64,000 nt of DNA from an uncultured delta proteobacterium (GTDB taxonomy: Bacteria > Myxococcota_A > Polyangia > Polyangiales > Polyangiaceae): assembly GCA_963841435.1 (NCBI GenBank), contig CAWJCS010000003.1, positions 448,001-512,000 on the forward strand. The letters are read 5' to 3'. The translations under genes were made by a program, and so were the position numbers. Below are positions 30,636-54,362 of the stretch, piece after piece (the first letter of the stretch is position 1; each line of letters starts with the position of its first letter). The notes beneath the pieces are model-generated. The model did no database searches and was not told the origin of the DNA. It saw nothing but the letters and a program-made list of their open reading frames with translations.

Positions 30636-30826
30636 AGCTCCACGAGTCTAGCGAGGGCGGCGAGCGCAAGCGATACGGTAGCGGAGCCCGCGCCGACGAG
30701 CCCGGGAGTCCAGAGCGAGGAAATAACTGAAATTGTTGATGATTTTGGTGTCCCCGAGACACCGTGGGCCCCCAAGCCGCCTTACGAGCGTCCCGCACCC
30801 GCGCCCGAAAGGGACCGGGTCGCTCC

Positions 30827-32779: not shown

Positions 32780-32868
32780 GGCGTCGGGGCGGAGCACTGT
32801 GCCGACTCTGGATTGCCTTGGCGTGCCTCTCGCATGACGGTGGAGTGAGAACGCCGAGAGCAGTTATC

Positions 32869-34601: not shown

Positions 34602-34645
34602 CGCCACCGCCCTCGTACCCCGTGATGTCGGCACCGCGTGCTGGT

Positions 34646-34743
34646 TTCCGAAAAGCGGAATCGCTGCGTGGCGCTGCCGTCATGAATTCCGATCGAGAGC
34701 GTGACGTCTCGATCCCGGCAAGCGGGTGCTCCGATTTTCGGAA
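34646..34743. promoter_or_regulatory. Palindromic sites TTCCG-N5-CGGAA (34646; variants at 34713 and 34729)
   Basis: TTCCGaaaagCGGAA, TCCCGgcaagCGGGT, CTCCGattttCGGAA. Confidence 0.6.
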
Positions 34744-35011
34744 AGGAGCAGAACCCGGGCGCGATGAAACCGCACGTGCACCGCAGCCGAGACGACACCG
34801 CTCGGACGCGACACAAGATGCCGAATCGTCACACCGGACGGGCGATCGAGGCTGTAAAAAGCGGCTGGCGTCCGCGTCATCTCTTCCGCCCTAGCGGCGC
34901 CCTCGGTCGATGCAGGCCTCATTGCACGCCTCCCAGAACGACCCCACGCGGGGGTGCGACGCATCACGCCCGGGGCCCTTCGACATCGACATCCATGCCA
35001 AGCGGGTACCG

Positions 35012-36043
35012 ATGCAAGGTTCGTCGCCCCATTCATCAGAGGATGCCCTTCTCGATGGCAACGAAGCGCCTGGCGGTTCGTCGATCGAGCGATTCGCCTC
35101 GGGGGGGTCGGGGCCGGGTCGCTCGGTGGGTCAACTCACAACGGAGTCGACCGCGATGCGCCAGCTTTTCGTCGAGCTCGAGCGCCTAGCAGCGACCACG
35201 ACCACCGTCACTTTGGTCGGAGAAACAGGCACGGGCAAGGAGGCGCTGGCTCGCGCGACCCACGCAGTTGGCCCACGAGCGGGGGAGGCGTTCGTCAAGT
35301 TCGACTGCTCGGGCATTTCGCCCTGCGTCGTCGCGCGGGAGCTTTTCGGAGAGGAACCGCCAGCGTCGATGGACGCCCCGACGAGGGAGCCCGGTGCCCT
35401 CGAGCGAGCTGCGGCAGGAACGCTCTATTTGGAGTGCATCGCCGAGCTGTCGCTCGAAGTGCAGGGTCTACTCGCGGCCGAGTTCCAGCGGCGGGCGGCC
35501 CGCCACGCGGCCGGAAGCATCGTGCCGTCTTTTCACGCTCGCGTCATCGCTTCAACGCATCGCGACCTGAAGTCACTCGTATCGCTAAATCTGTTTCGAG
35601 AGGACCTGTACGTTCACCTGTTGGGCGCTGTCGTCAACGTGCCGCCCCTTCGCGCCCGGCTCGACGACCTCCCCCTAGTCGTTCCACAACTGCTCGCGTT
35701 GCTCGGCCGGAGCGACCTCACGCTGGAGCCGCACGCGTACGAAGCGCTGCGCGCCGAGGGCTGGCGTGGCAACTTTCGCCAGCTCGAAAAAACTCTCACA
35801 ATTGCGCTCTATCGCTCCGAAGGAGGCGCACTCGACGCCGAAGCGCTGCGCGCCGCAATGAGCGAGGCACAGGACGCCGAGCTCGACACGCTACCGCTGG
35901 GCGGCCAGCCTCTTGCTCGAATCGAGCGCGCCGCCATCCGGCAGACGCTGGCGCAGAGTGGTGGCATGAAGAGTCGTGCGGCGCAGACGCTCGGCATTGC
36001 ACTCTCGACGCTCTACGACAAGCTCAAGAAGTACGATCTTTGA
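35012..36043 (+). CDS. Degenerate sigma-54-type AAA+ regulator with Fis HTH and no input domain
   Basis: GETGTGKE, FREDLY, WRGNFRQL, AAQTLGIALSTLYDKL; GAFTGA replaced by PASMDA; Walker B reads LYLEC. Confidence 0.85.
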   Translation: MQGSSPHSSEDALLDGNEAPGGSSIERFASGGSGPGRSVGQLTTESTAMRQLFVELERLAATTTTVTLVGETGTGKEALARATHAVGPRAGEAFVKFDCSGISPCVVARELFGEEPPASMDAPTREPGALERAAAGTLYLECIAELSLEVQGLLAAEFQRRAARHAAGSIVPSFHARVIASTHRDLKSLVSLNLFREDLYVHLLGAVVNVPPLRARLDDLPLVVPQLLALLGRSDLTLEPHAYEALRAEGWRGNFRQLEKTLTIALYRSEGGALDAEALRAAMSEAQDAELDTLPLGGQPLARIERAAIRQTLAQSGGMKSRAAQTLGIALSTLYDKLKKYDL

Positions 36044-36103
36044 GCGGTGCAAACAGCGTTTTTCGAGAGCTTTTCCGGGCGAGACGCGACGAGTCGTCCA
36101 GCG

Positions 36104-37328
36104 ATGCAGGCCGTTCCCATCAAGCGCTGCCTACCGTCCGTCTCGATCCTGTGGGGCATCGCGTTCGGGCTCCTGACGTTGCTGTGCGCCCCACATGCGC
36201 ACGCGTACACGTGGATGATCCGGCACGGCTACGCGACCTGCACGCCGTGCCACCTGGACCCGTCGGGCGGCAGCGTCCTCACGCAATACGGCCGTACCGT
36301 GGGAGGCCTGCTTCTCACGACCGACTACGTCAACCGGAACGCCGAGGAGAGCGAACCCTCCGCCATCCACGACTTCGCGTTCGGCGTGATCCCTCTGCCC
36401 GAACAGCTGATGCTCGGCGGTGATACTCGACTGCTCTACTATTCGAACAAGCTCCAGGGCGTGACGCCGAGGAACGAATTTTTGCTGATGCAGGCCGACA
36501 TGACGGCCGGCGTGTCCTGGAACAACGTTCTGGCCGGCGCGAGCCTCGGATACGCGGCTCAGGGGGCCTTTGCCGCGTCGCTCACGCGCGGCGACGATCA
36601 CAATCTGGTTTCGAGACACCACTGGATCGGCTACCAAATCAGCGAATCTCAGGGGCTCGTGTTGCGCGCGGGGCGCATGAACCTGCCCTTCGGGATCCGC
36701 GACGTGGCGCACACGCTTTTCGTCCGCGAGAACACGGCAACGCGCATCGACAGCGACCAGCAGCATGGCGTCGCCGCGAGCTGGTCTCCCGGATGGTGTC
36801 ACGCGGAGCTCATGGCCATTGTCGGCAACTTCCAGCTACGGCCCGACGAGTACCGGGAACGCGGGTACAGCGGCGTCTTCGAGTGGTTTCCGACGAGCCG
36901 GCTCGGCATCGGCGCGAGCTCCCTCGTCACTCATCGCGGCCTCGACGATCTCTTCCTCAAGGAGGCGTGGCGCCAGGCCCATGGCATTTTCGCCCGCTGG
37001 GCCACGGGGTGGGAGCCGCTCGTGGTGATGGGAGAAGCGGACTACGTGCTCCGCTCCGCCAAGCAAGAGTTCCGCCGCCGGGGATTCGCGGGGTATCTCC
37101 AAGCAGATCTCGAGCCGCTGCAGGGTCTTCACGTCGTCTTGACCGGCGAAGCGGAGAACGTCGGCGTGCGCGGTACCCCGCTCTCCTTCGGCGCTTGGCT
37201 CTCGGAGATCTCGGTTCCTCGCCCCACACGCCGACGTCCGAGTTGACAATGTCTACCAGCGCTTCGCGGATGAATTCGGCACCCTGGACTCCTTGACGCT
37301 GCTTCTCCAGGCCCACCTCTATCTCTAG
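36104..37328 (+). CDS. Outer-membrane beta-barrel with N-terminal CxxCH (Cyc2-like cytochrome-porin architecture); frameshift near 37212
   Basis: Signal peptide (AHA), YTWMIRHGYATCTPCHLDPSGG..LTQYGR; barrel pattern; +1 frame continues FLAPHADVRVD..LLLQAHLYL* to 37328. Confidence 0.7.
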
Positions 37329-37336
37329 AACCAACC

Positions 37337-38032
37337 ATGCGCCGTCCAACCGAGCAAACGTCGCCCTCTGGCGCTCCGGGCGAAGCGCTGCCCTGGGCCG
37401 TGCAAACAGGCCGCGGCTCGTGCCGTCGAGCCACCGGCGCATGCGCCGCTGTCGTCGCGCTCGGCGCTTGGCTCGTGGCGGGCCCCGCCGTGGCGTCCCC
37501 GACCTTCCCGGCCGTCGTCGAAGGGTATTGGCACGTGAGCAGCCTGCCCGTACCGGGCCAAGGCTGTCGTCTGTGTCATTCGACCGATGCCGGGGTCACC
37601 GTCACGCAGCCCTTCGGCAAGACGGTCCGCGCCCTCGGCGCGCGCGACAAGGACAATGCTTCGCTGCGATCCGCACTCGATAGGGTGCGCGTGAACGGCT
37701 ACGACAGCGACGGCGACGGCATCGCCGACTATCAGGAGCTTGCGATCGACGAGACGAACCCCAGCGATCCACACTCTTTCGTCGCGCCACCCGTCATGAT
37801 CGGTGAAGGCGGGGCTGGAGGCGCAGGCGAAGGAGGCTTCGGGGGCGAGGCTCCCCGGCCCCCCGCGCCACCAACCCCACCCCCATTGCCGCCGCTGCTC
37901 GAGCATGGTTGCTCGTTCGGAGCCGCGGGCAAAATGGACACCGGCGTCGAGCTTGTTCTCGCCTTTTTGTTCTTACCTGCGCTCCTCCGCGCGCGCCGCG
38001 AAGCACGGCGCGACCCACGCCCTCGAGGGTGA
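37337..38032 (+). CDS. Exported monoheme (CRLCH) protein with TSP3-like Ca-binding repeat and MYXO-CTERM-like tail
   Basis: Signal peptide, CRLCH, DSDGDGIADYQEL, Gly/Pro linker, GCS + hydrophobic helix + RARR. Confidence 0.7.
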   Translation: MRRPTEQTSPSGAPGEALPWAVQTGRGSCRRATGACAAVVALGAWLVAGPAVASPTFPAVVEGYWHVSSLPVPGQGCRLCHSTDAGVTVTQPFGKTVRALGARDKDNASLRSALDRVRVNGYDSDGDGIADYQELAIDETNPSDPHSFVAPPVMIGEGGAGGAGEGGFGGEAPRPPAPPTPPPLPPLLEHGCSFGAAGKMDTGVELVLAFLFLPALLRARREARRDPRPRG

Positions 38033-38057
38033 CGGCCGGGGCGTTTTTCGCCGCGAC

Positions 38058-39191
38058 CTAGAATGCGCCGCGAAGCGCGGCTCCCCAGGTGCCGCGCTCC
38101 CCGACAATGGGCTCGGCGCTGAAATGGAGCGAGCGGCTTGCGCTCCTCGCCTTTTCGCCTCCGTGTCCGGAGAGGAAAAGGTAGCTTGCGCTCGCGAGCG
38201 CCGCGACCCCGACGCTCGCACCGACGAAGGCCCAGGTCCGAGCCGTGCGCGCTTCATCCACGAGCCGCGCGTGCTCTATGATTTCGTACTGGGTGCACCC
38301 CACCCCGCTCGGGCAAAGGTCCTGCGCGTCTCCGTTGGAGGTGCGATACCTGACACCGAACCAGACGCCGGCGGCGACCCCAACGACGCCGGCCGTGCCG
38401 AGCGTGTAAGCCGCAATGCGGCGACCGGGTCCGGACGAACGCGCGTCCTCTCGTTTCCGCTGCGCTGGCGGAGCCATCCGCGCTGGTGCGGCGCTCGGTG
38501 TCTGATGTGCGTCCTCGAGCGAGGGAATCGCGAGGGCATACGTCGTGCCGGGATCCTTCACCTCGAACGTCTTGGACCAGCTGCGCTTTTCTTCGGCGGA
38601 GACCGCGACGACGTAGTGACCCGGGTTGACCGGCAGGGACTTTCCCCAGTCGGCAGGCGCGATCGGCTCGTCGTTCATCTTCACCTCGGGACTCTGCGCG
38701 CGGGTCTTTTCGTCGACGTCGACGCGGACACGCGAGAGAGTGGGAGCAACGGCCAGCATGCGTTCCCTGGCGACCGCGGCGCGGTCGAGCTGTCCTGCCT
38801 TGAACGAGCGCAGTGCTACCTTCTCGAAAAGCTCGTAGGCGCTCGCCGTGCGACCGAGGGCCTGCCAGCAGCTCGCGAGGTGGAACGAGGTCCCGAGCGC
38901 GTCGTAAAGCGTAAGGCTCGCCTCGAGCTTCTGACAACCGAGCTCGTAGCTACCGCTCTCGACGAGAGCGACCCCCGCATTGAAGAGGGTCTCCGCCCGA
39001 GCCTTGTCTTCGGCCGGAGCCGCGGTACTGGCCGCGCCATCACGAACCCGTTCCGCGCTCGCCGGCGCGCTGCTCTCGGCGCGACCTGGCCGCGCGCAAA
39101 ACAGGGTCGCCCCGACCGCAACGACACTCGCAAGTCGCACGACGCTTCCCTGGGTGCCGGCTCGGCGCCCGTACCACTTTCGGATCGTCAT
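38058..39191 (-). CDS. Exported TPR + PEGA-like protein
   Basis: GCQKLEAS..GTSFHLASCWQALGRTASA, LPVNPG; start coupled to the kinase stop. Confidence 0.75.
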   Translation of the reverse strand: MTIRKWYGRRAGTQGSVVRLASVVAVGATLFCARPGRAESSAPASAERVRDGAASTAAPAEDKARAETLFNAGVALVESGSYELGCQKLEASLTLYDALGTSFHLASCWQALGRTASAYELFEKVALRSFKAGQLDRAAVARERMLAVAPTLSRVRVDVDEKTRAQSPEVKMNDEPIAPADWGKSLPVNPGHYVVAVSAEEKRSWSKTFEVKDPGTTYALAIPSLEDAHQTPSAAPARMAPPAQRKREDARSSGPGRRIAAYTLGTAGVVGVAAGVWFGVRYRTSNGDAQDLCPSGVGCTQYEIIEHARLVDEARTARTWAFVGASVGVAALASASYLFLSGHGGEKARSASRSLHFSAEPIVGERGTWGAALRGAF

Positions 39192-40803
39192 CAATCCATT
39201 CCGGAGAAAAGAGCGTTGGCGTCCAGCGTTGCGGACGGCCTTTCAGTGGCGGGCCGGGGAGCCAGATCGAGGTCAGGCGCCGGGTTTGCCGATTTGGTCT
39301 GCAGACGCGGCGACGGCGCGCGCGCGACGGGTGCCGGGGCGGGCGGCAGCTCCGCAACAGCGGGGTGAGGCGCGCGCGGGCGAGCAACGGGAGCGCCCCG
39401 AGGAGCCGACGCCGGCGCAGGTGCGGTCACGGACGCGGTCGGCGTGGCCGCGGCGGCGAGAGCGGTCGACACGGGCGCGGGGGCAACCGCCGGCTCACCA
39501 ACGCGCGCCGCGGGCGGCATGGCGGGGATCATGCTGCGCATGAGCAACATCGTGATCGCGGCCGCACCGATCCCGATGCTCGCGCCGGCGAACAGCAGCG
39601 TGAGACCCTGCGTGCCGGAGCTCGCCGATCGCGCGTTGTCGTCGGGAGGCGGCGGCCGCGAGCGCACGAGCGCCGTGCTGCGCCTGTGAGAGGCCGGCGG
39701 CGGCATGCTGCCCGGAAGTGGCGGTGGCCGCGTCGTCCTGGCGATGATCCGCTCCATGCGGCTCACGGATGCGCGTGCTTCCGAGGATGCGAAGGGCGAC
39801 AGCGCTACCGCGAGGTCCACGACGCTGCGCGGTCGGGCCTCGGGGTCCTTCTCCAGGCAGGCGAGCACGAGCTCTTCCAGTTCGGGTGGGAACGTCCTGC
39901 CGGAAGAGGTGCAAGGGGCTCGCCATGTCCGCCGCAATCATGGCCAGGAGCGCCATCGGCGTCTCTGCACGGAACGGAGGCGTGCCCGTGATGAGCTCGT
40001 AGAGGATGGCGCCGAGTGCCCAGAACGTCCACGCGCGCGTCGAGCCCCGCTGGGTTGCGGATTTGCTCCGGCGCCATGTACGCTAGCGACGCCTGTGCCC
40101 CCGTGCCGAGCGGCATGCTCAGCCCATCGGTACCGAGCCAGTCCGGAACGAACGGATCGGACACTCCAAAGTCGAGCACTCGCACGAGCGGAGCACCGTC
40201 GGGACGACGCTCGACGAAGATGTTCGACGTGCTCAGCGTTCGATGCAAGACGCCCGCTGCATGGGCTTCCGCAAGGGTCTCGCAGACCGCGAGCGCCACG
40301 TCGGTCGCCTCGGAGACCGGCAGCGGACCCCGCACGCGCAGGATCTCGCTGAGCTCGGGACCATTCGGTAGCTCCGCCGCGCGGTACGGTGCCCCCGAGT
40401 CGAGATGGCCGAAATCGACGATGCGCTCAGCGTGGTCGCTGCGCATCTCGCGAGCCTTTCGCGCGCCGCGCTGAAAGCGGGCGACGGCCTCCGGAGACGC
40501 TGCGGCCTCGGCCGTGAGATGGCGGAGCTGCACCTTGAGGCCGAGCTCGGAGTGTCGTGCCTGGAGGACAACCTCGTGCGCAGTTCGCGCGATCTCGCGT
40601 TCGACCAGGTAGCGGCCGACGATCATGCTGCCGACATCGGACGGTCGTGTCGTGCTCCGCGGCACGCGTTGGGACGGGCGTACGCGCTGCGCGTTTTCCC
40701 GCGGCGGGTCCGTCAAGAGCTCGTGGTCGAAAACCTTCTCCCCCTCGTCCTCGTAGTCACGAGCGCCCGCGGGGTGCAGCGGGTCGTGTTGGTCGGGCGA
40801 CAT
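39191..40803 (-). CDS. Membrane-anchored Ser/Thr kinase-like protein (pseudokinase); two frameshifts (~40024, ~39889)
   Basis: RFQR.AR, HRTLSTSNIF, VLDFG, YMAPEQ; shifted frames give DVWALGAILYELITG.PPF and ELEELVLACLEKDPEARP; C-terminal TM. Confidence 0.8.
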
Positions 40804-40946
40804 GCGGTACACCATCACTCCGCGGCCAACCTACACCACCGATCGGCGCCCGCCAGCGACAAATCGGCGTCAGAAACGCCGCGGGAAGGGTCGCTGTTTG
40901 GCCTCGACCGGCACTCCAAGTTCACAATGGACGGCAAGCCGTCACT

Positions 40947-40961
40947 TTCCGGAATACGGAA
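40947..40961. promoter_or_regulatory. Palindrome TTCCG-N5-CGGAA
   Basis: TTCCGgaataCGGAA in the divergent kinase/TBDR intergenic region. Confidence 0.6.
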
Positions 40962-41070
40962 ATAGGGACGAGTGATCACGCGTGGTCCCGAGTCTGGAGT
41001 TGCGGGCAGTCCACCAGCCCGTAGTCGGCTAATGGCTCGTCCCGACACAGCGGTAGAGAGTTTTCCCTCG

Positions 41071-41090
41071 ATTCACCGCACCGTCACGGA
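41071..41090 (+). promoter_or_regulatory. Pho-box-like direct repeat
   Basis: TTCAC (41072) and GTCAC (41083), 11 bp apart, ~30 bp before the TBDR start. Confidence 0.4.
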
Positions 41091-41117
41091 GAGCGTGCAA
41101 GGGTGCGGGCCCCTCGG

Positions 41118-44100
41118 ATGGCGCCGACGCGTTCCATCGCCGCTTTCACTTGCTTCATCGCCACCGCGATGCTGTCGCACTCATTGCGTGCAGAGAACGA
41201 ACCGCCCAAGGGCGCGCCGCCCGCGAGCTCCGACAAGGCGCCCAGCGGCTCGGCGCCCGCTCTACCCGAACCGGGAGCTACCGGAGAGGACGAAGTCGGG
41301 GAGGATGACGTGGCCGACGGCGAGGGGGACGAAGTCACGGTGGGCGCGGACGAAGGAAAAGCCGCACCCGACCAGCACGAGGACGATTCGAGCGACAGAG
41401 GAGACTTGGACGACGAAGCGCTTCTAGAAGGCGAAGACCCGGCGCGCCCGCCGCCGAAGGGCAAGGGTGCGGTGTGGGGGGTGGTCACGGAGGATGAGTT
41501 CAAGGAGACGCTCGTCGAGGCGACCGTTCAGGTGCTCGGCAACAAGACGACGACGTACACGGACGTGGACGGGCGCTTTCGCCTGGAATTACCGCCAGGT
41601 ACGTACAGCCTTCGCGTTTCCTACGAGCTCCACAAATCCACGCGCATCGACGGCGTCACCATCGTCCCGGGCAAGGTCATCCGCCTGGATACCGAGCTCG
41701 TACACGATCAGGGCGCCGTCAACGTGTTCGAGGTCGCGGAGGAAGCCGACAAGAGCACGCTCGAGGGGTTGATCCTGGCTCGGCAGAAAGCGACGATCGT
41801 CGGCGACAGCGTCGGGCGCAGCGACATCAGCAAGACGCCCGACCGCAACGCCGCTCAGGCGGCGCAGCGCGTGGTTGGCGCGACCATCGTGGGCGGCCGT
41901 TTCGTCTATGTGCGCGGTTTGGGTGATCGCTACACGGACGCGCTGTTGAACGGCGTCCCGCTCCCGAGCCCCGAGCCCGATCGCACTGCCGTGCCGCTCG
42001 ACCTGTTCCCGACGAGCGTTCTCAACAGCATCACCATCGCCAAAACGTTCACCCCGGACTATCCTGCCGATTTCGCGGGCGGCTCGATCCGGATCGAGAC
42101 CCGCGAGATCCCCCGCGAGCCGCTGTTCGAACTGTCCCTGAGGGGGGGCTACAACACGAACACCACATTTCGCGAGCGCCTCACGTATCGAGGTGGGGGG
42201 CTCGATTGGCTGGGAATCGACGACGGGACGCGAGCCCTTCCGGACGGTTTCCCCAAGGATTTCGTCGGCCCGAGCTACCCGGCCGACCAGCGTACCGCCG
42301 CCGGGCGCAGCATCAACACGTACATGAGCACCACGAAGAGCGGGACCCCTCCGGATCACTCGCTGTCCGTGGTGGCCGGCAACTCCTGGGACTTCGGCAA
42401 CGATCGCAAGCTCGGCGCGCTCGGGACGGTCAACTGGGGACGTTCCTACACCGTGCGGCGCGGCGAAATCGTGCGCATCTTCACCCCGAAGACGCCGAGC
42501 GACACGACCGAATACCACCTCGCGCGCGACTACAAGGCGAGCAGCGGCAACGTCCGAGTCAACTGGGGTGGCTTCGGTAGCGTGACGTACGGCTTCTCGG
42601 CGCAGCACCGGTTTTCCTTGACCGGCATCCACACGACGACCACCGACGACCGCGCGCAGATCCTCACGGGGTTTCACAACGTCCGCAACGCCTACGTCTA
42701 CTCGTCGCGCCTCGCCTTCGTCTCGCGCAACCTCAACGTCGGAATCTTACGCGGTGAGCACCGCTTCCCGAGCCTCAACCACGCAGAGCTCGACTGGAAC
42801 CTCGTGCTCTCGTCGGCGACGCGCAACGAACCGAACCGGCGCGACACCGTCTGGTCCGATGCGGCGGACACCGCACAGCGCACGTACGTCTACGTCGACG
42901 CCGCCGAAAGCGGCCGCCACTTCCACGCCGATCAGACCGAGATTCAGCGCGGCGGCGGCGTCGACTGGAGCCAGCCGATCGGACGCGCCGAGTCGAAGCT
43001 CAAGCTCGGGGGCCTCGTGAGCCTTAGAGATCGCGACTTCAATTCCCGCGTGCTCTCGCTACGCCATCGCCCGGGCGCATCGCCTCTGAACAACCCCGTG
43101 CTGGCCTGCCGCACGGGTAACGTCAACGCCTGCAACGACACGCTGTTCGTCAACAACGACATCGGCAGCACCTCGGCGGAGGCGCTGCAGCTGGTCGAGG
43201 CGCGCAACGACGGCGATCGCTACGACGCGTCGCTCGACGTCCACGCGGGGTACGTGATGGCCGACCTCGAGCTCGGCAAAGCCTTTCGGGTTCTCGTCGG
43301 CGAGCGCATCGAGCACACCCGGCAGGTGATCGAACCGTACAACGCTTCTGGTGTGAAGGATCCGACGCTGAGGGCGGACATCAACCAAAGCGACCTCCTG
43401 CCCGCCGCGAGCGGGAGCTGGAGCGTCAGCGCCAAATCCAAGCTTCGGCTCGCGGTCGCCCGCACGCTCGCTCGCCCGCAGCTTCGCGAGCTCGCGCCGT
43501 TCACCTTCCAGGACTACTTCGGTGGCCGGGTAGAGGGTGGAAACCCGGATCTGAAGCTCACCAACATCACCAACCTCGACGCGCGCTTCGAGCATTTTCC
43601 TACCCTGCGCGAGGTGCTGGCCTGCAGCATCTTCTTCAAGGACTTTCGCAACCCCATAGAGCAGATCATCAAGGCCGGTGGCGACGAAGGCTCCGTCACC
43701 TACCAAAACGCAGAAGGGGCAACACTCTTCGGTATCGAGCTCGAGGCTCGCAAAGGGTTGGGCTTCCTGCACGAAGCCCTCTCGAATTTCAGTGCCTCCA
43801 CCAATCTCACGTTCGCGCGGTCGAAAATCGCGCTGAGGCCGCAAGAGTCGATCGCGCTCGCCAACCTGTCCCGAGCGATGGTCAACCAGGCGCCATGGGT
43901 GCTCAACCTCTCCTTGAACTACCTCGGAGAGAAGACCAGAACGAGCGCCACGCTGCTCTTCAACGTAGCCGGCCCGCGGATCGCGACCGTTGGTCCAGTC
44001 GGCCTCGACGACGTCTACGAGCACGCGCGGAGCATGCTCGACGCAAGCGTGCAGCAGGGCATCGTCGACCACCTAGACGTCAAGCTCGAAGCAAGAAACC

Positions 44101-44255: not shown

Positions 44256-44455
44256 CGGCACGACCGCGGTCAAGAGTGGTCGCGAAGGGTCCGTGATCGA
44301 CACGAGGCCGTCGGGCGCTCGCGCGCCGACCGGTGTTCATCCAAGTATCATCGCGTCGACGCCATCCGGAACCGAAAAAGTTTCAGCGACTGACGCACCG
44401 GTCGCCCCGAGTCCGCGGTAAGAGGCTGCCTCGCATCGGCGAAAGGGAAACATTC

Positions 44456-46009: not shown

Positions 46010-46015
46010 CTCCGG

Positions 46016-46044
46016 ATCCCAAAAACGGATTCCGAAAATCGGAA
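46016..46044. promoter_or_regulatory. Palindrome TTCCG-N5-CGGAA (46030) with an adjacent degenerate copy
   Basis: TTCCGaaaatCGGAA preceded by ATCCCaaaaaCGGAT. Confidence 0.6.
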
Positions 46045-46192
46045 GCGGCCGAGCGGTGTGTGCCGTGGGGCCTCGAGAGCCCCGACCCGGCGCAGGACGA
46101 CGCGCTGCGCCGCGTCTCATTCACGATCATGTTGCGTGCGCGGTGCGGCGTGCACGGGTACTCGGTGCAAACACCATGCGAGGTCTCTCACG

Positions 46193-49100
46193 ATGACCCG
46201 GCGGGGAAACGCATCGACGAGGGGCGCGCGCTTTCCGGCGGCGCTCGTCTGGCTCTTCGGGATTGTGCTCCCGGCGAGCCATGCTTGTTTCGCAGAACCG
46301 AGTACCCACGACACGCCACCGGTCGCAGAGGCCGGCTCAGGGGGAACTTCGGGGTCATCGCACGCTGGGTCGACGACCAGCGGCAGCGGGGGAAATCCCG
46401 GCACCAACCCTCCCCCGTTTTCGGACGGTGGCGAAGATTCGGGCCCACCGGGCCCGGGTGCAGGCGGCGAACCAGAGACGATTGGCTTTTCGTGCCACAA
46501 GCCGTCGGGGGAGCCGTTGCCTGCGCGCAAATCCGTCACGTCGAACGATGCACCTGCCACTCCAACGGATGAAACGATCACCGTCACGAAAGCGAGCCTG
46601 TTCGCCGAATTCCAAAACCTGACCTGCGGCACGGAGGGTTGTCACGGCGGTGGCAACGACCCGAACGCCCAGTCGCCCGACGCGTTCACGACGACCATCG
46701 CTTCGTTCGACGAGCGCCCCACGCTCGGCACCGACGCGCTCGAAAGGATCCTGTCGCCCGACCTCGATGTGGTGATGCCCCCAGGCTCGGAGGACGGCTC
46801 GAAGCGGGGACCGAACGATCGCTACCGGCGCTTCGGGGAGCGCTTGCTCGCATGGCAAGCGGCGGGCTTCCCGGATGCGTTCGAAGTCAGCGCCACCGGC
46901 GATCCGATCGACACCAACCTACCGACCGATCCATACGTTCTGGCGCCGCGGGTCGCCACCGCGCTCACGAACATCGGAAGTTGCGTCCCGAGTCAACCAA
47001 CCTCGCTGACGACGGCCGGCGACGAGATGCGGGCGAAGGATGCGCTGTTCGCGGCGGCGCGCACTATCGACGACCTACCGGATACGATCTTCGAGACCGA
47101 CCTCGTGAGCCTGGATTCGTCCGTGCTCGCTCGCCGAGGCGTGTGGAGCTACGCGCCCACCTATCCGCTGTTTTCGGACAACGCCGGCAAAATGCGCTAC
47201 GTCCGCGTGCCCGTCGGCGAGTCCATCCGCTACGACAGCGACCGGCGCGACTTCGTCATCCCCGACAACACGAGGTTCTACAAGACGTTCCTCAAATCGG
47301 TCACCGACAAGGCCGGCAACGTCGGCTATCGAAAAATGGAGACGCGGCTGATCGTCGTCCGGCAGGACGAGAAGCTTGCAGATGGCGGCTATCGCCAGCA
47401 CGCGCTCTTCGCCTCCTATGCCTGGGACAAAGACGAGCGCATGGCACGCCGCGTGACGGACCCGCTCAGGAATGGTCAGCCGTTTGCCGACCGCCTCTGC
47501 CCCTACGTCGTGGACGAACGGGTGACGCGCGACCCCGAAAAGAACCCCATCAGCCCACAGATCAGCGAGACGTGCACCTACATGACCCAGGCGGAGCTGG
47601 CGGATCCAGGCTCCGGACGGATCCGGCACTACGCCATTCCGGGCACGGATCGCTGCCAGCAGTGTCACATGGGCTCGAGCAGCCACTCCTTCATCCTCGG
47701 TTTCAACCCGTATCAGGTCGACCGCCGTCGCGACGGCGAGGGCGGCATCTACGAAACGCCGCACGACGACGAGCTGTCGCAGCTCTCCCGCCTCCTCGAC
47801 TACGGGGTGGTGTCGGGCATCGAGCCGGGCGAGGTGAAGCTCGAAGAGTCGCAAGGGTCGCGCACGCCCCGCAACGACTACGAGCTCAAGGCGCAGGGCT
47901 ACATGATGGGCAACTGCGCCTTCTGCCACATTCCGCACGGCTATCCGGTGGTGCAAAATCCGGTCTTGAAAGGCTTCGAGCTTTTCCCCAATCCAACCAC
48001 CGGCGGCATTTTCCAGTTCTCGCTCGAACGTTACTCACCCCGAGCCAAGGGCGGGGCGGAGCAGCTCGTTAAGATCCCGTACGTCTCGCCCGCCTTCGGT
48101 GACCTGAGCTTCGCCGATACCACGAATGTATCCGGTGCCACCGAAAAGACGTTCGAGCTCTCCGTCGCCCCCGTGATCGACGCGGACTCTTATCCCATCG
48201 ATTGGGATCCCGTCACTTTCCAGTTCACCCTCCTCGGACCCTGGCGAAGCTTGATCTGGCGGAACACCTACACGCCGTTCACCTACCAGGAAGACGGGGC
48301 CATTTACGTTCATATGCCGCGCAATGCGCCAGGCTTCGACTGTCGCGTGCAGCACATCATGGCCGAGTGGATGCTCAGCATCCCCACTCAGCCGAAGCCG
48401 CTCGGGCTTTTGACTCGCGACTACGACCAGCCAGTCGTCGAGGTCACAGAAGAAAACGCCGACGACTACAATTACAAGGCCGCGATCTACGACGCCGCGC
48501 GCCGCGTCAAGGAATACAACCAGGGGGTCACGGGGAACTGGTGCCCGAACGACGACGATATTCTCGACCCCAGAGTCGTTCTCACTCCGATCGATGCTGT
48601 CACCGGGAAGCCCAAAATCGTCTCGCCCCCGGACGAAGGCATCGGCGGGCCGCGCATCGTACCGGACTATCCGGACCCGGGCAGGCTCGCCGACAACGTT
48701 CCGGATCACGCCCACTGGGTCGTCACGGACATCACCGATCCCGCAGATCGCTGGACTCCTCGGCTGCCAACTTGGAGCAAGCTCATCGCCACCCGTGAGC
48801 AGGCCCCACCCGAGGCACTCGTGGGAGTGGTCGACGAGCTCCAGAAAGTGCACGCTTCCGACGAGTTCCGTGACTTCGCGCGTGAGCCGTTGCCCATGGG
48901 CCTTTGGCACGAAGACTGCCAGTCGCAACCGGAGGTCGCTGCCTTCCCGGAGGTGCGCGAGGTGTCTCTCGACGAGCAGGGCGGCGCGCTGCGGCGCTGG
49001 CTCAACGGCGGCGTGTTCGAAGAAGACGCCGGTGCGCCGGGGACGAAGAAAGTGCACTTCCAGAGCCGCGGGGAGGCGGTGTTCCGCGCGATCTGCCAGA

Positions 49101-50062
49101 ACTGCCACGGCAGGGAGGCCGACTCGCGGAGCCCCCTCGCTTCGACGATCCTCGAGATCACGGGCGGCAAGACCCGCGTTGCAAACTTCGTCGCTGGCCT
49201 CTTGGGCCCCAAGAGCGCGCCGGGAGCGTTCGCCCGGGAGGAGTTCCTGGTCGACCTCGGCGCAACGCCCGAGGACTGGCTCACGCGCTACGTCCTTTAC
49301 ATGGGCCTCGGCGGTACGACGGCGCAGATCCCGCAGGTGGTGCTCAACCTGGTCGCAACGAGCCCGTTTTACGGCAACGCCGTGATCGCTCCCGGCGGCG
49401 ACAATCCGAACATGCTCGGGTCCGCTCAGAAGCAGTGCGCCGCGGTCTTGTCGGCGCCGCGAGGGCTACCCGACCGGTCCCCGCCGGCGCCCTGGCTGCT
49501 TCAGGCGGAGTTCGCCAAAGGCACCGCGCACTACGAGCTTTGGGAATCCCTGTGCGGGCACGACAATCTTCCGGTCGTGCACGTCTTCGAACATGGGACA
49601 GACAAATTCAGTCCGTGGGTATCGGGCTACGCCAACATCTTTCGTGCCGTGGACGACACGGGCGGCTGGATCTACCCGACGGACTGGCCCGTGGGCAATC
49701 AGCGCGGCAGCGTCGATACGGGGATCAACGCCAACAACGTACTTCCCTGGTGCATCCATCCCACCTCCGACGCAGAGCTCGATCTTATCACGGCTTGGGC
49801 CGCGGACGTCGGGCTGAGCCCCTCGACGGTACCGCTCTGTCCCTCCACGTTGTTCGCACAGGCTGCCGGACTGCCCGTTTACCACCTTGCCCTGGACTAC
49901 AACGGTCCTCTCAAGGATGTGCCCTTCGGTAACCAGGACTACTCGCGGCGCTTCCTCCTGGCAGGCGCCATGAACGCGGGCAAGGCCGCGCTCGAGCACC
50001 TCAAGGGTCTGACCCGCGGTGAGCTCGAACCGGCGCTCCCCTACGACTTCTGTGTTCAGTGA
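46193..50062 (+). CDS. Large multiheme c-type cytochrome lipoprotein containing an SO2930-like diheme module
   Basis: Lipobox-like SHAC; CGTEGCH, CQQCH, CAFCH, CQNCH; PLFSDNAGKMRY..KTF..ETRL..YAW pattern of SO2930-like proteins. Confidence 0.75.
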   Translation: MTRRGNASTRGARFPAALVWLFGIVLPASHACFAEPSTHDTPPVAEAGSGGTSGSSHAGSTTSGSGGNPGTNPPPFSDGGEDSGPPGPGAGGEPETIGFSCHKPSGEPLPARKSVTSNDAPATPTDETITVTKASLFAEFQNLTCGTEGCHGGGNDPNAQSPDAFTTTIASFDERPTLGTDALERILSPDLDVVMPPGSEDGSKRGPNDRYRRFGERLLAWQAAGFPDAFEVSATGDPIDTNLPTDPYVLAPRVATALTNIGSCVPSQPTSLTTAGDEMRAKDALFAAARTIDDLPDTIFETDLVSLDSSVLARRGVWSYAPTYPLFSDNAGKMRYVRVPVGESIRYDSDRRDFVIPDNTRFYKTFLKSVTDKAGNVGYRKMETRLIVVRQDEKLADGGYRQHALFASYAWDKDERMARRVTDPLRNGQPFADRLCPYVVDERVTRDPEKNPISPQISETCTYMTQAELADPGSGRIRHYAIPGTDRCQQCHMGSSSHSFILGFNPYQVDRRRDGEGGIYETPHDDELSQLSRLLDYGVVSGIEPGEVKLEESQGSRTPRNDYELKAQGYMMGNCAFCHIPHGYPVVQNPVLKGFELFPNPTTGGIFQFSLERYSPRAKGGAEQLVKIPYVSPAFGDLSFADTTNVSGATEKTFELSVAPVIDADSYPIDWDPVTFQFTLLGPWRSLIWRNTYTPFTYQEDGAIYVHMPRNAPGFDCRVQHIMAEWMLSIPTQPKPLGLLTRDYDQPVVEVTEENADDYNYKAAIYDAARRVKEYNQGVTGNWCPNDDDILDPRVVLTPIDAVTGKPKIVSPPDEGIGGPRIVPDYPDPGRLADNVPDHAHWVVTDITDPADRWTPRLPTWSKLIATREQAPPEALVGVVDELQKVHASDEFRDFAREPLPMGLWHEDCQSQPEVAAFPEVREVSLDEQGGALRRWLNGGVFEEDAGAPGTKKVHFQSRGEAVFRAICQNCHGREADSRSPLASTILEITGGKTRVANFVAGLLGPKSAPGAFAREEFLVDLGATPEDWLTRYVLYMGLGGTTAQIPQVVLNLVATSPFYGNAVIAPGGDNPNMLGSAQKQCAAVLSAPRGLPDRSPPAPWLLQAEFAKGTAHYELWESLCGHDNLPVVHVFEHGTDKFSPWVSGYANIFRAVDDTGGWIYPTDWPVGNQRGSVDTGINANNVLPWCIHPTSDAELDLITAWAADVGLSPSTVPLCPSTLFAQAAGLPVYHLALDYNGPLKDVPFGNQDYSRRFLLAGAMNAGKAALEHLKGLTRGELEPALPYDFCVQ

Positions 50063-50080
50063 CCGGCTCCTCTACTCGCC

Positions 50081-52915
50081 ATGCCTCACGCACCAAACCC
50101 CCTGTCCCGAAGCGCGCGCCTGCTGAGAACCCTTCTCTTGGCAGGCTCGGTCGCTGTCCTCGGCTACGGGTGCGGTGAATCCCCCACGCGACCGGAAAAC
50201 ACGAGTGGAGGCGGGAGCGGTGGCGGTGGAAGCGGCGGCCGCGGCGGGACCGCGGAAGCCGGGTCGTCCGACGAGCAAGCGGGGCATGCACAGGGTGGCG
50301 AAACCGCGGCATCGACCTGTGGCAACGGAGAGCGCGAGGGCGACGAAGAGTGCGACGACGGCAACCTCCAAGCGGGTGACGGCTGCGATTCGGCGTGTCG
50401 CGCCGAGTCGGGGGCGCCGGCGTGCGGCGACAGCCTCCGAGAGGGCAACGAGGAATGCGACGACGGCAACCTCCGGTCGGGTGACGGTTGCGACGACCAA
50501 TGCCAGAAGGAGCTTTGCGGCAATGGTCGCGTCGATTCCGGCGAAGAGTGTGATCCGCCGCAGTCGGGCAGCTGCACGGAGAATTGTTCGCTCGTTCGAG
50601 CCAACTGCGGCAACGCCCAAGTCGACGGCGACGAGGAATGCGACGACGGTAACGACGAGAAAGGCGACGGCTGTTTCGAGTGTCGCATGGAGTGTGGAGA
50701 CAAGCGCATCGACGCGTCCATCGGTGAGGAATGCGACTACGGTCTCTCCCCCGCGGTTTGTTCGGAGGACTGCAAGTGGTTGCCGGCGTGCGGCGATGGC
50801 GTGGTGCAAAGCGAGACGGGCGAGGAGTGCGATCCGAGCAACGGCGTGACTTGTGTGGCCTGCCACAAGGTCGCGCCTGATCCGCGGGGCTGCGGCGCTG
50901 GCGGCTCGCAGGGTGAGGGCGGCTGCGGGGGAGCGCCGACCGAATGCGTGCCCCAGGGGGCCGTGCAGTCCGTTCAAAACGGCAATTTCGATACGGACAC
51001 CACGAGCTGGGCACCCCACAGCACCATCATCACGCTCACGTCGGTGAGCGACGGTGACCCGGCGCCGAAGTCCGTCGACGTGGCGATCGCGCTCGGCGAC
51101 GTCCGCGCGGTTTCCGGCGCCTACCAATGTGTCCCCATCGGACCGAGCGCTCGGTTCGTGGTGGAGGGCCGCTATCGCGTACCGACCGACGCTCCGAGCG
51201 GCGTCGGTGCGAGCCTCACCCTGGCCCTCTACCAGGGGACACTCTGTGAAGGCACCTACCTCACCGCCGGTTCCGGTCCGCTCGGCACCGTGCGCGACGC
51301 TTGGACGCCGTATCAATACTCCATCGACGGTTCCGCGCTCGCGGGTGAGGGGCGGCTTTTGGTGCGATTGAACGTGCTCCGGCCGGGGGCTGTTTCGGGG
51401 AGCCACGTTCTCTGGGACAGCGTGGCACTCGCGGGCTCTCAGAGCGCCTGCGGCAATTGCATGCTCGACGCAAGCGAGGAGTGCGACGACGGCAACCAGG
51501 TCTCCGGGGACGGCTGCACCAGCGTCTGCACGCTCGAACGCTGCGGCGATGGAGCAAAGAGCCAGGGCGAGGAGTGCGACGACGGGAACGTCGCCTTCGG
51601 TGCGACCAACGACGATTGCACCCCGAGCTGTCGAACACCCACGGCATGCGACCTCTGCGCGCGGAGCAGCTGCACGAGCGAGACGCTCGACTGCCTCGGG
51701 CTCGAGGGCGACGCGAAGTCGGGGCCGGCACGCGGGGCGCCCCGCAGCGGGCTCTGCGATGCGCTCAGGACCTGCGTTCAGGACACGTCCTGCGACCGGG
51801 TGAGCCGCGACATCGGCGGGGTAAAGGGCGCCTTCCTCGAGGGCTGCTATTGCGGCACCGCTGGAGGGGACTGCTTCACCGAGCCAGGTCTTGCCAATGG
51901 GAGCTGCCGGCAGGAGGTCGAAGCCGCGCTCGAGACCACGGACCCGACGGTGCTCGTGGGACGGCTGAGCGGGGCGGACGCGCGGTATCCTTTGTTCCGG
52001 GCGCTGAACGATTTGCTTGCCTGCGAAGGCACCGGCTGCGGCAACACCTGTGTCCGCGATCCGGTCTGTGGCGACGGCACCCGGCAAGATCGGGACCTCA
52101 CCGTCCTTTTGTCGGTCGGGGGTCGGGACGTGCCCTGCCAAGACGACCTCACCGTGACCGGCAGAGGTTGCTCGTTCGAGGAATGCGACGACGGCAACAC
52201 GACGCCTGGCGACGGCTGCGACGAGCACTGCCTGCTCGAGCAGTGCGGCGACGGCATCGTCGGGAGCATCGAGCAATGCGACGACGGCAACACCAACGAC
52301 GACGACGGTTGCAGCAAGACCTGCCGGTGGGAGTTTACCTGCGGCGACAGCGTCACGGAATCCATCGAGCAGTGCGATCCGCCGGGTGGCGACCACGCGT
52401 GCACTCCCGCTGAGTACCAGAGTGACCCTTCCGCGTGCGGCTGCAGTGAGACATGCCAGCGCGCCGTGTGCGGAGACGGCAAAATCCAAAAGCCCATCGA
52501 AGAATGCGACCCTCCGGACGGGGTCAAATGCAGCGCTGACTGCAAGCGCCTCGACCAAGGGCCCTGCGAACGCTGCATCAGCGAAGTGGATGGCTTTCCG
52601 TACGATGAAGAGTGCGAAGCTGACCCGGCCTGTTTGGCGGTCGAGCGATGCGTCCTCGACGCCGGTTGCTACCTACCCGTCAGCGCCGCCTGCTACTGCG
52701 GGGTAGATACCTCGAGCAATTGCGAAGACCCCAAGTTCAAGCCGATTGGGCCGTGCCACGAGCTCATCGCGACGGCGGCAGGGCCTCCCGGCCTCGAAAA
52801 CTCGCAAGTGCTGTTCGCGATGGGTGACCTCTTCAACCCCGCTGGCCTGGCCTTCTTGGTCGTCAGCGTTGGAGCCGATGATTGTCACGACGAGTGCTTC
52901 GGGACATCGCCCTGA
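50081..52915 (+). CDS. Lipoprotein with many DUF4215 (myxobacterial Cys-rich) repeats, a CBM-like domain and two CYCG domains
   Basis: Lipobox LGYGC; repeated CGNG..EECDDGN..GDGC. Confidence 0.85.
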   Translation: MPHAPNPLSRSARLLRTLLLAGSVAVLGYGCGESPTRPENTSGGGSGGGGSGGRGGTAEAGSSDEQAGHAQGGETAASTCGNGEREGDEECDDGNLQAGDGCDSACRAESGAPACGDSLREGNEECDDGNLRSGDGCDDQCQKELCGNGRVDSGEECDPPQSGSCTENCSLVRANCGNAQVDGDEECDDGNDEKGDGCFECRMECGDKRIDASIGEECDYGLSPAVCSEDCKWLPACGDGVVQSETGEECDPSNGVTCVACHKVAPDPRGCGAGGSQGEGGCGGAPTECVPQGAVQSVQNGNFDTDTTSWAPHSTIITLTSVSDGDPAPKSVDVAIALGDVRAVSGAYQCVPIGPSARFVVEGRYRVPTDAPSGVGASLTLALYQGTLCEGTYLTAGSGPLGTVRDAWTPYQYSIDGSALAGEGRLLVRLNVLRPGAVSGSHVLWDSVALAGSQSACGNCMLDASEECDDGNQVSGDGCTSVCTLERCGDGAKSQGEECDDGNVAFGATNDDCTPSCRTPTACDLCARSSCTSETLDCLGLEGDAKSGPARGAPRSGLCDALRTCVQDTSCDRVSRDIGGVKGAFLEGCYCGTAGGDCFTEPGLANGSCRQEVEAALETTDPTVLVGRLSGADARYPLFRALNDLLACEGTGCGNTCVRDPVCGDGTRQDRDLTVLLSVGGRDVPCQDDLTVTGRGCSFEECDDGNTTPGDGCDEHCLLEQCGDGIVGSIEQCDDGNTNDDDGCSKTCRWEFTCGDSVTESIEQCDPPGGDHACTPAEYQSDPSACGCSETCQRAVCGDGKIQKPIEECDPPDGVKCSADCKRLDQGPCERCISEVDGFPYDEECEADPACLAVERCVLDAGCYLPVSAACYCGVDTSSNCEDPKFKPIGPCHELIATAAGPPGLENSQVLFAMGDLFNPAGLAFLVVSVGADDCHDECFGTSP

Positions 52916-53006
52916 GCCAGCGGAGAAATCCGAGGAGCTACCCACCATGCCCCAGTTTCATCCCTTCCGTCAGGTCGTCACACGTTGACGAGCCAGGGGC
53001 CGCCAC

Positions 53007-54071
53007 GTGGCTCGGCTCGTAGGCCTCACGACGATCGTTTGGTGGGCCTCGATCGCCACTGCTGGCAGCGACCTCTCGACCGTCTTCAAGGTCAACGAGG
53101 AAGACCCCGCCGGGCACATTCCGACCATCGAGCAGCGCAACGCCAATCCGCTGCAGTTCGGATACTACCTTCAGGATCTGTACACGCGGGGCCAGCTAGC
53201 CCTCGAGAAGAAGGATTACGCAAAGGCGGTCAAATACTTCGAGACGCTGACGAAGATCTTGCCTGATCGCGCGCTCTCGTTCGGCGCCTTGTGCCAGAGC
53301 TATCAGCATCTCGGCAAGCTGGACCTCGCCGCAGCCAGTTGCGCCCGGGCGATCAGCCTCGAGGGCGCGACGCTCGTGGACCATCTCAGATTTTTGGACG
53401 TGACCTTGAGCGGCAAGGCGCCGACGAAGGAGGTGGTTGCGGACCTCGACGCGAGCATTGCTCACGTGCGAGAGCACCTCGCGGCTCAGCCGAAAGACGG
53501 GCCGCTGCCGCCGGAGTCCACGCGGCCTTCGCACCCACCCGACTACCAGCCCACCTCCGAGGAAGTCGCTGCGGACGTAGCTGCCGCCAGAGAGGCGCAC
53601 CGGATTCGGAAGGCGGAGATCGCGAGGCGCGATCAGCGAAGTTCCTTCCTGGTCGAGTTCGAGATCACCGTGTGCCGGCTGGCGCAGCGGCTACGGGATG
53701 GGAAGCGGCTCGGCGAATGCGTGGAACGCTTACGGGGCCAGAACGTCAACGAACCGATAGTGCTGACGTATGAGTGGTCGAAAGCCGTCGTCCAGGGCGA
53801 CGTCGCGGGCGCTTCGACTCTGCTCACCAAGGCCAAGAAGCTCGGGATCCCAGCTGCGACGCTGGACGCCATGGCAGACGAACAGGCGAAGGCGTTCGCC
53901 CCGAAGGGATTCCGAGGATTCGTTCGGCGCTGGGGTTTGCCGCTGTTCGCCGTGGTTACCGGCCTTGTGCTCGCGCTGCGATGGTTCGTTCGGCGCCGGG
54001 CCAGGCTCGGCAAGCCGGCGCTCGCCACACCGAGCCTTCCGGCGGACTCGACTGAGTCCGCGGAAGCGTAG
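53007..54071 (+). CDS. Exported TPR protein with C-terminal TM anchor
   Basis: Signal-like N-terminus; TPR helices (YAKAVKYF, ALCQSY.HLG); C-terminal TM followed by RRRAR. Confidence 0.7.
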   Translation: MARLVGLTTIVWWASIATAGSDLSTVFKVNEEDPAGHIPTIEQRNANPLQFGYYLQDLYTRGQLALEKKDYAKAVKYFETLTKILPDRALSFGALCQSYQHLGKLDLAAASCARAISLEGATLVDHLRFLDVTLSGKAPTKEVVADLDASIAHVREHLAAQPKDGPLPPESTRPSHPPDYQPTSEEVAADVAAAREAHRIRKAEIARRDQRSSFLVEFEITVCRLAQRLRDGKRLGECVERLRGQNVNEPIVLTYEWSKAVVQGDVAGASTLLTKAKKLGIPAATLDAMADEQAKAFAPKGFRGFVRRWGLPLFAVVTGLVLALRWFVRRRARLGKPALATPSLPADSTESAEA

Positions 54072-54081
54072 CGCCCGAGCA

Positions 54082-54115
54082 TTCCGAATTTCGGAGAGCA
54101 TTCCGGAATTCGGAA
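54082..54115. promoter_or_regulatory. Tandem palindromes TTCCG-N5-CGGA(G/A)
   Basis: TTCCGaatttCGGAG at 54082 and TTCCGgaattCGGAA at 54101. Confidence 0.65.
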
Positions 54116-54362
54116 GAGTGATACTCATTCGCTCGACGCGCGCATCGGGTTCCAACGCGAGCGTCTGCGTGATCGCGAATCGAGCCGCAAATGACCTTGA
54201 TTTCGCGGTGACCATTGTGAACACACACGGGCGCAAACGCCCCGACATTGTCACCCCCTGAAACGTACCCGTGTTGTAGCGTCCGGCCGCCGCTCGGAGT
54301 TCACCTTGCAACGTGACTCGGCGTAGTGGCCTCTGACAACGGGTTAACGAAAGGGAGCTCAT

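Follow-up and report, generated by a model that had tools for sequence, protein, structure and literature searches.

A clustered TTCCG-N5-CGGAA palindrome beside a degenerate enhancer-binding protein homologue in a genome of the Polyangiaceae

We examined a 64,000-nucleotide stretch of DNA from an uncultured member of the Polyangiaceae (hereafter the window; C3:448001-512000 of the 7,783,927-bp genome G000, which has 68.7% G+C and six contigs) for a palindrome, TTCCG-N5-CGGAA, that recurs within an island of genes also encoding P0001, a degenerate sigma-54 enhancer-binding protein (EBP) homologue. As judged from comparison with related genomes, the palindrome is most likely the DNA site of the Fis-type helix-turn-helix (HTH) of this EBP subfamily, and the data support the view of it as a genuine cis-element linked to that subfamily. 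The switch in this genome has probably been rewired, and on balance we lean towards a sigma-54-independent regulon run by the degenerate regulator, either as a repressor or as a sigma-70-type activator.

Four perfect copies of the palindrome were observed in the window, at 34646, 40947, 46030 and 54101 (Table 1), as an earlier note on this DNA had reported. Dinucleotide-preserving shuffles of the window gave a mean of 0.16 copies, and four copies were reached in none of the 100 shuffles. Allowing up to one mismatch gave eight matches in the window, seven of them within 34553-54115. Two of these, at 34729 and 54082, had been described as near-perfect and carry one mismatch each, and a third one-mismatch copy at 34553, which pairs with the 34646 copy in a 27-nt direct repeat, was absent from the earlier list. 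The weaker copies that had been placed at 34713 and 46016 differ at three of the ten specified bases and are chance-like. The motif is not equally common across the genome, in which only six perfect copies occur, four of them inside one 20-kb stretch; the spacers of the two copies beyond the island are G+C-rich, and both copies lie within rough open reading frame (ORF) calls. Sites with up to one mismatch number 204 genome-wide, and 19 of them have A/T in at least four of the five spacer positions, including six in the island. The same half-sites at other spacings (N3, N4, N6 and N7) were found in 4-7 copies genome-wide and in zero copies in the window. In an unbiased genome scan for clustering within 20 kb, the palindrome ranked 4th of 733 observed 5-N5-5 palindrome types, below two homopolymer runs and AACGG-N5-CCGTT on another contig. 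Of the 13 copies of this last palindrome in the genome, five fall within 9 kb (G000 C5:361945-370793), and it may mark another local regulon.

The six good copies (the four perfect copies and those at 34729 and 54082) precede the regulator gene, a divergent pair encoding a membrane pseudokinase and a TonB-dependent receptor (TBDR), a haem-protein operon and a Cys-rich lipoprotein operon. The claimed intergenic location holds for all six on the ORF maps, with a codon-phase plot showing no coding signal at 34600-34840, and the A/T-rich spacers are present at the four perfect copies. Apart from local duplications (the 27-nt repeat and a 19-nt tandem at 54077-54114), the 15-bp core alone is shared between the copies, and they are therefore not a mobile repeat. 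Half-site alignment gave the full consensus YTCCGAWWWTCGGAR, composed of two half-sites TTCCGA(A/T) per site. The spacer runs symmetrically from A-rich to T-rich, which fits a duplex site read by a dimer and not an RNA loop. The four intergenic regions yielded no further shared motif. Looked for under four spellings, TTCCGA-N3-TCGGAA was absent from the published literature, and a search with half-site words gave only primers and unrelated sequences among the papers listed.

The same palindrome was enriched near members of the regulator's subfamily in other genomes, which supports the link between regulator and motif and leaves no room for the earlier description of the motif as island-specific. 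A family scan with the canonical member P0004 found members (E <= 1e-90) in 57 of 383 genomes, G355 counted. With G355 left out, 78 of the 79 places outside this genome were analysed as 73 loci (±6 kb, 787,765 bp), in which a site was defined as a perfect match or as a match with one mismatch and an A/T-rich spacer. Twelve sites were observed in nine of these loci, distributed over five genera. The controls gave 1 site in 400 kb of random regions (from eight of these genomes), 4 in 622 kb near unrelated EBPs from other phyla, and 13 in the 7.76 Mb of this genome that lie beyond the island; about 1.3-2 sites would be expected in the subfamily loci (~1.6 from the pooled controls), against the 12 seen. 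Eleven or all twelve of the relatives' sites were intergenic. Tandem sites 21 bp apart in G360 and 20 bp apart in G285 resemble the 19-bp pair in the window. Positions shared with the window were found directly upstream of the regulator gene (G548 and G360), ~300 bp upstream of a haem-protein homologue (G360) and 180 bp upstream of a Cys-rich lipoprotein homologue (G060). Other neighbours of the relatives' sites included PhoX, a PBP_like_2 (PstS-like) protein, a dihaem peroxidase, and secreted Cys-rich, PKD and beta-propeller proteins. All ten regulators beside the relatives' sites keep GAFTGA or GSFTGA and the Walker B DE. Among themselves they share 55-74% identity, and with the window protein only 42-47%.

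A syntenic island was observed in G053 and G060, which belong to the same genus as the window genome, and in G453. In G053 (C127) and G060 (C3) a canonical EBP gene stands next to the TBDR gene and a second, paralogous one next to the pseudokinase gene (loci L158, L159, L179, L184 and L226-L230), where the window has a single degenerate one. The three syntenic islands carry one to four copies of the motif, with only 1-2 in G053 and G060. The window, with four perfect and two to three near-perfect copies, exceeds any relative examined, in which sites are mostly single and carry one mismatch.

Wider scans, whose genus and order tallies include G046, G355 and G430, gave no comparable cluster. The bare pattern formed no cluster in 47 genomes of the genus, with counts like those of the control pattern and G+C-rich spacers, and no other cluster with an A/T spacer was found in 401 genomes of the order, where G154 and G408 hold four scattered copies each. 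Haem-protein homologues in other families, seen in 14 of 151 genomes, had no A/T-spacer site within 1.5 kb. In G400, three identical copies at a 115-bp period (C627:2652-2896) form another kind of tandem. Their exact sequence, TTCCGCAAAGCGGAA (or the complement), is found repeatedly across the family (G400, G154, G408, G382 and other genomes) and looks like a different repeat or hairpin and not the operator examined here. Perfect matches at 48276 and 50934 in G172 (C13:47980-53022, L132) were rejected as regulatory sites, since each lies in a conserved coding segment of one of two paralogous Cys-rich genes, homologues of the window gene at 56102-58495; perfect matches can thus be coding coincidences.

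The proposal that the local regulator is the protein that reads the palindrome gains from the association of the motif with its subfamily, but P0001 itself is degenerate as a sigma-54 activator. Alternative starts for P0001 lie at 34910, at 35012 (the start taken in the earlier note) and at 35156 (the public gene call, 295 aa). The AAA+ sigma-54 interaction domain (PF00158, E=1.6e-35; AAA_lid_14, E=2.5e-8) and the C-terminal Fis-type HTH (HTH_8, PF02954, E=1.2e-12) are both present, with no N-terminal sensor domain. We aligned the protein with the 13 homologues nearest to it within the genus (42-51% identity), all of which read ELFGHERGAFTGA...GGTLFLDE...YFRL...GNVRELKN where the window regulator reads ELFGEEPPASMDAP...AGTLYLEC...YVHL...GNFRQLEK. 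GAFTGA or GSFTGA is kept in all 13, and its position in P0001 holds EEPPASMDAP (aligned segment EEPPASMDAPTREP). The Walker A sequence GETGTGKE is intact in the window regulator, while the Walker B sequence LFLDE has become LYLEC, YFRL (the R of which we take to be an arginine finger) has become YVHL, and RELKN has become RQLEK. GAFTGA is not encoded in the other reading frames of the regulator gene, so its loss is not a frameshift artefact. By these residues the window regulator is predicted to be unable to contact sigma-54 or to hydrolyse ATP. Compared with canonical P0004, 40 of 49 residues (82%) are identical in the HTH versus 119 of 246 (48%) in the ATPase part.

A search of 5.8 billion proteins returned relatives of up to 54% identity. 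Among the 120 best database relatives, six lack GAFTGA (the window protein, P0025, P0043, P0056, P0111 and P0023), and four of the five other than P0001 also lack the Walker B Asp; the HTH is kept in all. The six form one clade with a support of 0.949 (FastTree), in which the terminal branch of the window protein measures 1.18 versus a median of 0.13 (nine times). The genome encodes sigma-54 (rpoN). The window copy is its only subfamily member at E <= 1e-90, and no paralogous degenerate EBP was found in it. A search of genome contigs with the GAFTGA-less P0025 returned nothing closer than 44%, and a search of metagenome contigs with P0001 returned only a 34% relative.

Sigma-54 promoters were scored with ad hoc weights for TGGCACG-N4-TTGCW, with no curated model and with a null of mostly coding DNA. 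Four of ten site clusters in the relatives had an outward sigma-54-like match of at least 17.5 at 70-120 bp (best scores of 18.9 in G053, 18.7 in G453, 18.2 in G492 and 17.5 in G285), two more scored 16.9-17.0, and several of the sites lie about 50-120 bp upstream of the sigma-54-like promoters. A score of at least 17.5 was reached by 6.4% of 3000 random centres in this genome. The best outward scores at the five site clusters of the window were 14.7-16.2, with none of the five above 16.2, and 62% of random centres reach 15.5; the match scoring 16.2 sits inside the haem gene. By this ad hoc score, no sigma-54-type promoter above background follows any window site. The earlier note's likening of the palindromes to enhancer sites of an activator does not stand for this genome in the sigma-54 sense, with GAFTGA, the Walker B DE and the presumed second arginine finger missing from the regulator and no sigma-54 promoter above background. 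No consensus sigma-70 promoter was found in the four regions by a scan that covers myxobacterial promoters poorly.

The element and the protein belong to known kinds, and the new twist is that ancestral and derived regulon states occur within the same genus. NtrC-family activators such as NtrC and LuxO bind upstream activating sequences (UASs) consisting of ~15-17-bp palindromes, often in tandem on one helix face, through a C-terminal Fis-type HTH dimer, and these UASs lie ~70-150 bp upstream of a -24/-12 promoter. The motif in relatives of this genome has exactly this layout; unlike NtrC-family systems, this genome lacks the partner promoters and the catalytic and contact residues of the activator. 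PspF, a fully active sigma-54 activator, likewise consists of an AAA+ domain and an HTH with no sensory domain, the composition observed in P0001. With no sensory domain, control must come in trans, for which the syntenic membrane pseudokinase is a candidate partner of P0001; unlike the PspF system, no PspA-like gene is present here. VpsR, an atypical EBP, depends on cyclic di-GMP. One published account of sigma-54 regulons (PMC3162934) describes the E. coli proteins TyrR and DhaR and the Rhodobacter capsulatus protein HupR as EBP homologues with a defective GAFTGA that are sigma-70-dependent, lists VpsR and YplP as probably sigma-70-dependent, and gives GAFTGA as deleted in VpsR of Vibrio cholerae. 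P0001 resembles TyrR, DhaR and HupR in combining the AAA+ sigma-54-activator fold and an HTH with no functional GAFTGA. These three regulate through palindromic boxes without sigma-54, and by analogy the same may apply to P0001. It differs from them in lacking an N-terminal ligand or receiver domain and in the additional loss of Walker B and of the presumed arginine finger, and it is not their orthologue, since its best NCBIfam scores fall far below every cut-off. VpsR, also without GAFTGA, controls a cluster for secreted or surface products, but it has a receiver domain, and no sign of a nucleotide ligand was seen for P0001. From its sequence, P0001 appears to descend from the canonical myxobacterial subfamily, with the sites apparently inherited.

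Taken together, a regulator without sigma-54 contact, promoters without -24/-12 elements, and sites that are more numerous and better than in relatives favour a sigma-54-independent regulon. In the relatives, the subfamily protein would be a normal sigma-54 activator and the palindrome, single or in tandem two helical turns apart, would be its UAS. In this genome the sole subfamily member has kept its DNA-binding domain, whereas the sigma-54 contact loop and catalytic ATPase residues have been lost. The degenerate regulator would sit as dimers on the sites upstream of four units, namely its own gene, the pseudokinase/TBDR pair and the operons of the haem protein and the Cys-rich lipoprotein, and these four units would be regulated as one local regulon without sigma-54, with a sign that is not readable from sequence. 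A bolder version, which we regard as possible but doubtful, is that a whole sigma-54 enhancer regulon was converted: the contact loop and the sigma-54 promoters would have been lost and the HTH kept, while the sites were multiplied, perfected and spread to the pseudokinase/TBDR and haem promoters. The protein may then have become a dedicated enhancer-occupying repressor or a sigma-70 activator, with the ancestral state retained in relatives of the same genus.

Several observations weigh against this reading. Binding by the window regulator would be an extrapolation from the similarity of its HTH to those of canonical relatives, and any transcriptional effect on the four units is likewise something we infer. 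A site lies within 6 kb in only 9 of the 73 subfamily loci, and the comparison of 12 sites with the single site in the matched 400-kb control alone gives p ~0.04 by a binomial estimate, the stronger enrichment figures leaning on this genome's own background. No site was found within ±1.5 kb of the 11 closest regulator loci (L002-L012), nor any shared palindrome there. The motif is kept in the relatives' loci, but its positions are conserved only in part: no site was observed before the TBDR or haem genes in the islands of G053 and G060, and these promoters may therefore be recent recruits. The GAFTGA-less clade may owe something to long-branch attraction. The sequence CGGAGTTCACCTTGCA at 54295, 53 bp before the lipoprotein ATG, scores 15.7 and is a weak promoter candidate. 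Finally, the frameshifts in the pseudokinase and lipoprotein genes fit decay as well as rewiring, and assembly errors are also possible.

Decay is the basis of the first alternative, in which the regulon was once sigma-54-dependent, the genes for the regulator, the pseudokinase and the lipoprotein have become pseudogenes, and the palindromes are functionless relics. The degenerate regulator with its terminal branch of nine times the median, the three frameshifts, two of them in the pseudokinase gene and the third in that of the lipoprotein (or assembly errors in their place), and the lower third-position G+C of the genes at 33.5-41 kb all suit this account. We nevertheless consider it unlikely, as no relative examined has as many sites, or as many perfect ones, as the window, and neutral decay that took the ATPase part to 48% identity would not spare perfect 15-bp sites. 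The regulator ORF is also intact with its HTH 82% conserved, GAFTGA-less relatives persist in at least five other protein clusters, and the large neighbouring ORFs are intact.

A classic sigma-54 enhancer, in which an ATP-hydrolysing EBP hexamer on the upstream sites remodels the sigma-54 holoenzyme at the -24/-12 elements of the four operons, appears to us improbable in this genome. It is the apparent mode in the relatives, with their canonical regulators and sigma-54-like promoters 50-120 bp away; sigma-54 is encoded here, the site-to-ATG distances of 130-280 bp suit enhancers, and the match at 54295 is a weak candidate promoter. However, GAFTGA, the catalytic Glu of Walker B and the presumed arginine finger are all missing from the local regulator, the genome has no other subfamily member, and none of the promoter candidates in the four regions scores above background. 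We give similarly little credence to a different factor binding the palindrome with the EBP homologue as a bystander, whether the Rrf2-family regulator 4 kb upstream or a protein encoded elsewhere. Rrf2 proteins bind palindromes, and 64 of the 73 EBP subfamily loci have no site. Yet the motif has no copy close to the Rrf2 operon, tblastn with the Rrf2 protein among its queries (E <= 1e-6 to 1e-10) gave no homologue of it in the relatives' site-bearing loci or the syntenic islands, and the association across genomes is with EBP genes, twice within their own promoter region. Domain searches found no DNA-binding gene between 33.4 and 58.5 kb besides the regulator. That the palindrome is an RNA hairpin or a terminator, or that it clusters by chance, is very improbable: the copies at 46030 and 54082 closely follow stop codons and one terminator-like call covers 46044-46030 on the minus strand, but the stems are only 5 bp with no T-tract on the coding strand, the spacer symmetry suits a duplex site, no Rfam match was found, the relatives' sites lie upstream of promoters, and chance is excluded by the shuffles, the genome-wide counts and the unbiased clustering scan.

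Table 1. Genes of the island and copies of the palindrome in the window
Feature	Position	Strand	Remarks
Rrf2-family regulator	30174-30635	-	4 kb upstream
Secreted protein, no known family	33486-34601
One-mismatch copy TTCCGTAGGTCCGAA	34553..34567		Last 50 bp (3' end) of ORF 33486-34601; first unit of 27-nt direct repeat
Perfect copy TTCCGAAAAGCGGAA	34646..34660		250 bp upstream of 34910 regulator start
One-mismatch copy CTCCGATTTTCGGAA	34729..34743		83 bp from 34646 copy
Regulator P0001, degenerate EBP homologue	34910..36043	+	Sigma54_activat, AAA_lid_14, HTH_8
Two small genes, one CXXCH each	36047-37246, 37337-38032	+	Downstream of regulator
Further ORF after pseudokinase	38058-39194	-	Same strand as pseudokinase
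Membrane pseudokinase gene	39191..40818	-	ORFs 39805-40818 and 39191-39937
Perfect copy TTCCGGAATACGGAA	40947..40961		Divergent intergenic region; ~130 bp to pseudokinase start, ~164 bp to likely TBDR ATG 41118
TBDR	41103-44255	+	CarboxypepD_reg, Plug and barrel domains
Gly/Ser-rich lipoprotein, no known family	44333-46009	+
Perfect copy TTCCGAAAATCGGAA	46030..46044		20 bp past preceding stop; ~156 bp upstream of ATG 46193
Secreted 1289-aa protein (haem protein)	46193-50062	+	3 CXXCH; weak SO2930-type dihaem domain
DUF4215/myxo Cys-rich repeat protein	50081-52915	+
TPR protein	53007-54071	+
Tandem pair TTCCGAATTTCGGAG and TTCCGGAATTCGGAA	54082..54115		19-bp tandem repeat (54082 one mismatch, 54101 perfect); 262-281 bp upstream of ATG 54363
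Cys-rich lipoprotein gene, frameshifted	54363-54710, then frame of 54553-55863	+
797-aa Cys-rich secreted protein, no known family	56102-58495	+

The pseudokinase label was borne out, as HRD is replaced by HRT and the Gly-rich loop is missing, and homologues in relatives likewise lack the catalytic Asp. The pseudokinase gene spans three reading frames, implying two frameshifts, while a single ORF of 576-706 aa is found in G060, G053 and G453; it is either a pseudogene or the product of assembly indel errors. The frame of the Cys-rich lipoprotein gene changes at ~54545-54560, separating the signal peptide and first ~60 aa from the Cys-rich body, and the G060 homologue is one ORF. Synteny of the two small CXXCH genes with the regulator is kept in G053, G060 and G453. 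Two labels from the earlier note were not borne out: multiheme cytochrome is generous for a protein with three CXXCH in 1289 aa, and PstS, for the protein at 56102-58495, finds no support in Pfam or NCBIfam. PBP_like_2 occurs in the window in a single protein at 30827-32797, outside the span of the motif. There, on the minus strand (30174-32797), the Rrf2 gene lies downstream of an unusual one-protein fusion of DUF4388, a TonB C-terminal domain and PBP_like_2. Third-position G+C was ~0.70-0.80 in the genes at 33486-41000 compared with 0.82-0.90 in the rest of the window, and overall G+C was slightly lower across 33-58 kb. No tRNA genes and no Rfam matches were found.

A few sites and proteins beyond the window were also recorded. 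The one-mismatch site at C4:508229 is coding, and that at C5:1567066 overlaps a ribosome-binding site. The site TTCCGAATTTCGGCA at C6:1664430 (C6:1664300-1664460) may be real: it lies in a divergent intergenic region with several extra TCCGAAAC half-sites, flanked by genes for a secreted protein of 735 aa and a class-II amidotransferase-like protein, and the window regulator may have one more target here. In G548 (C62:967570-968628, L136) the second of two tandem regulators has an Arg-rich tail with no recognisable HTH, and its C-terminus looks frameshifted.

The palindrome gives this uncharacterised subfamily of sensor-less EBPs, widespread in Polyangia-type myxobacteria, a concrete DNA motif that can be tested; these bacteria carry dozens of such regulators with uncharacterised targets. 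If the regulator does not bind it, the palindrome remains a well-defined orphan cis-element. Within one genus, canonical activators with the palindrome and sigma-54-like promoters, and a GAFTGA-less copy, predicted to be catalytically dead, with more palindromes and no such promoters above background, form a natural before/after pair that allows the rewiring of a sigma-54 regulon to be studied. The putative target genes (TBDR, haem proteins and Cys-rich secreted proteins, with PhoX and a PstS-like binding protein in relatives) point to a surface and nutrient-acquisition programme.

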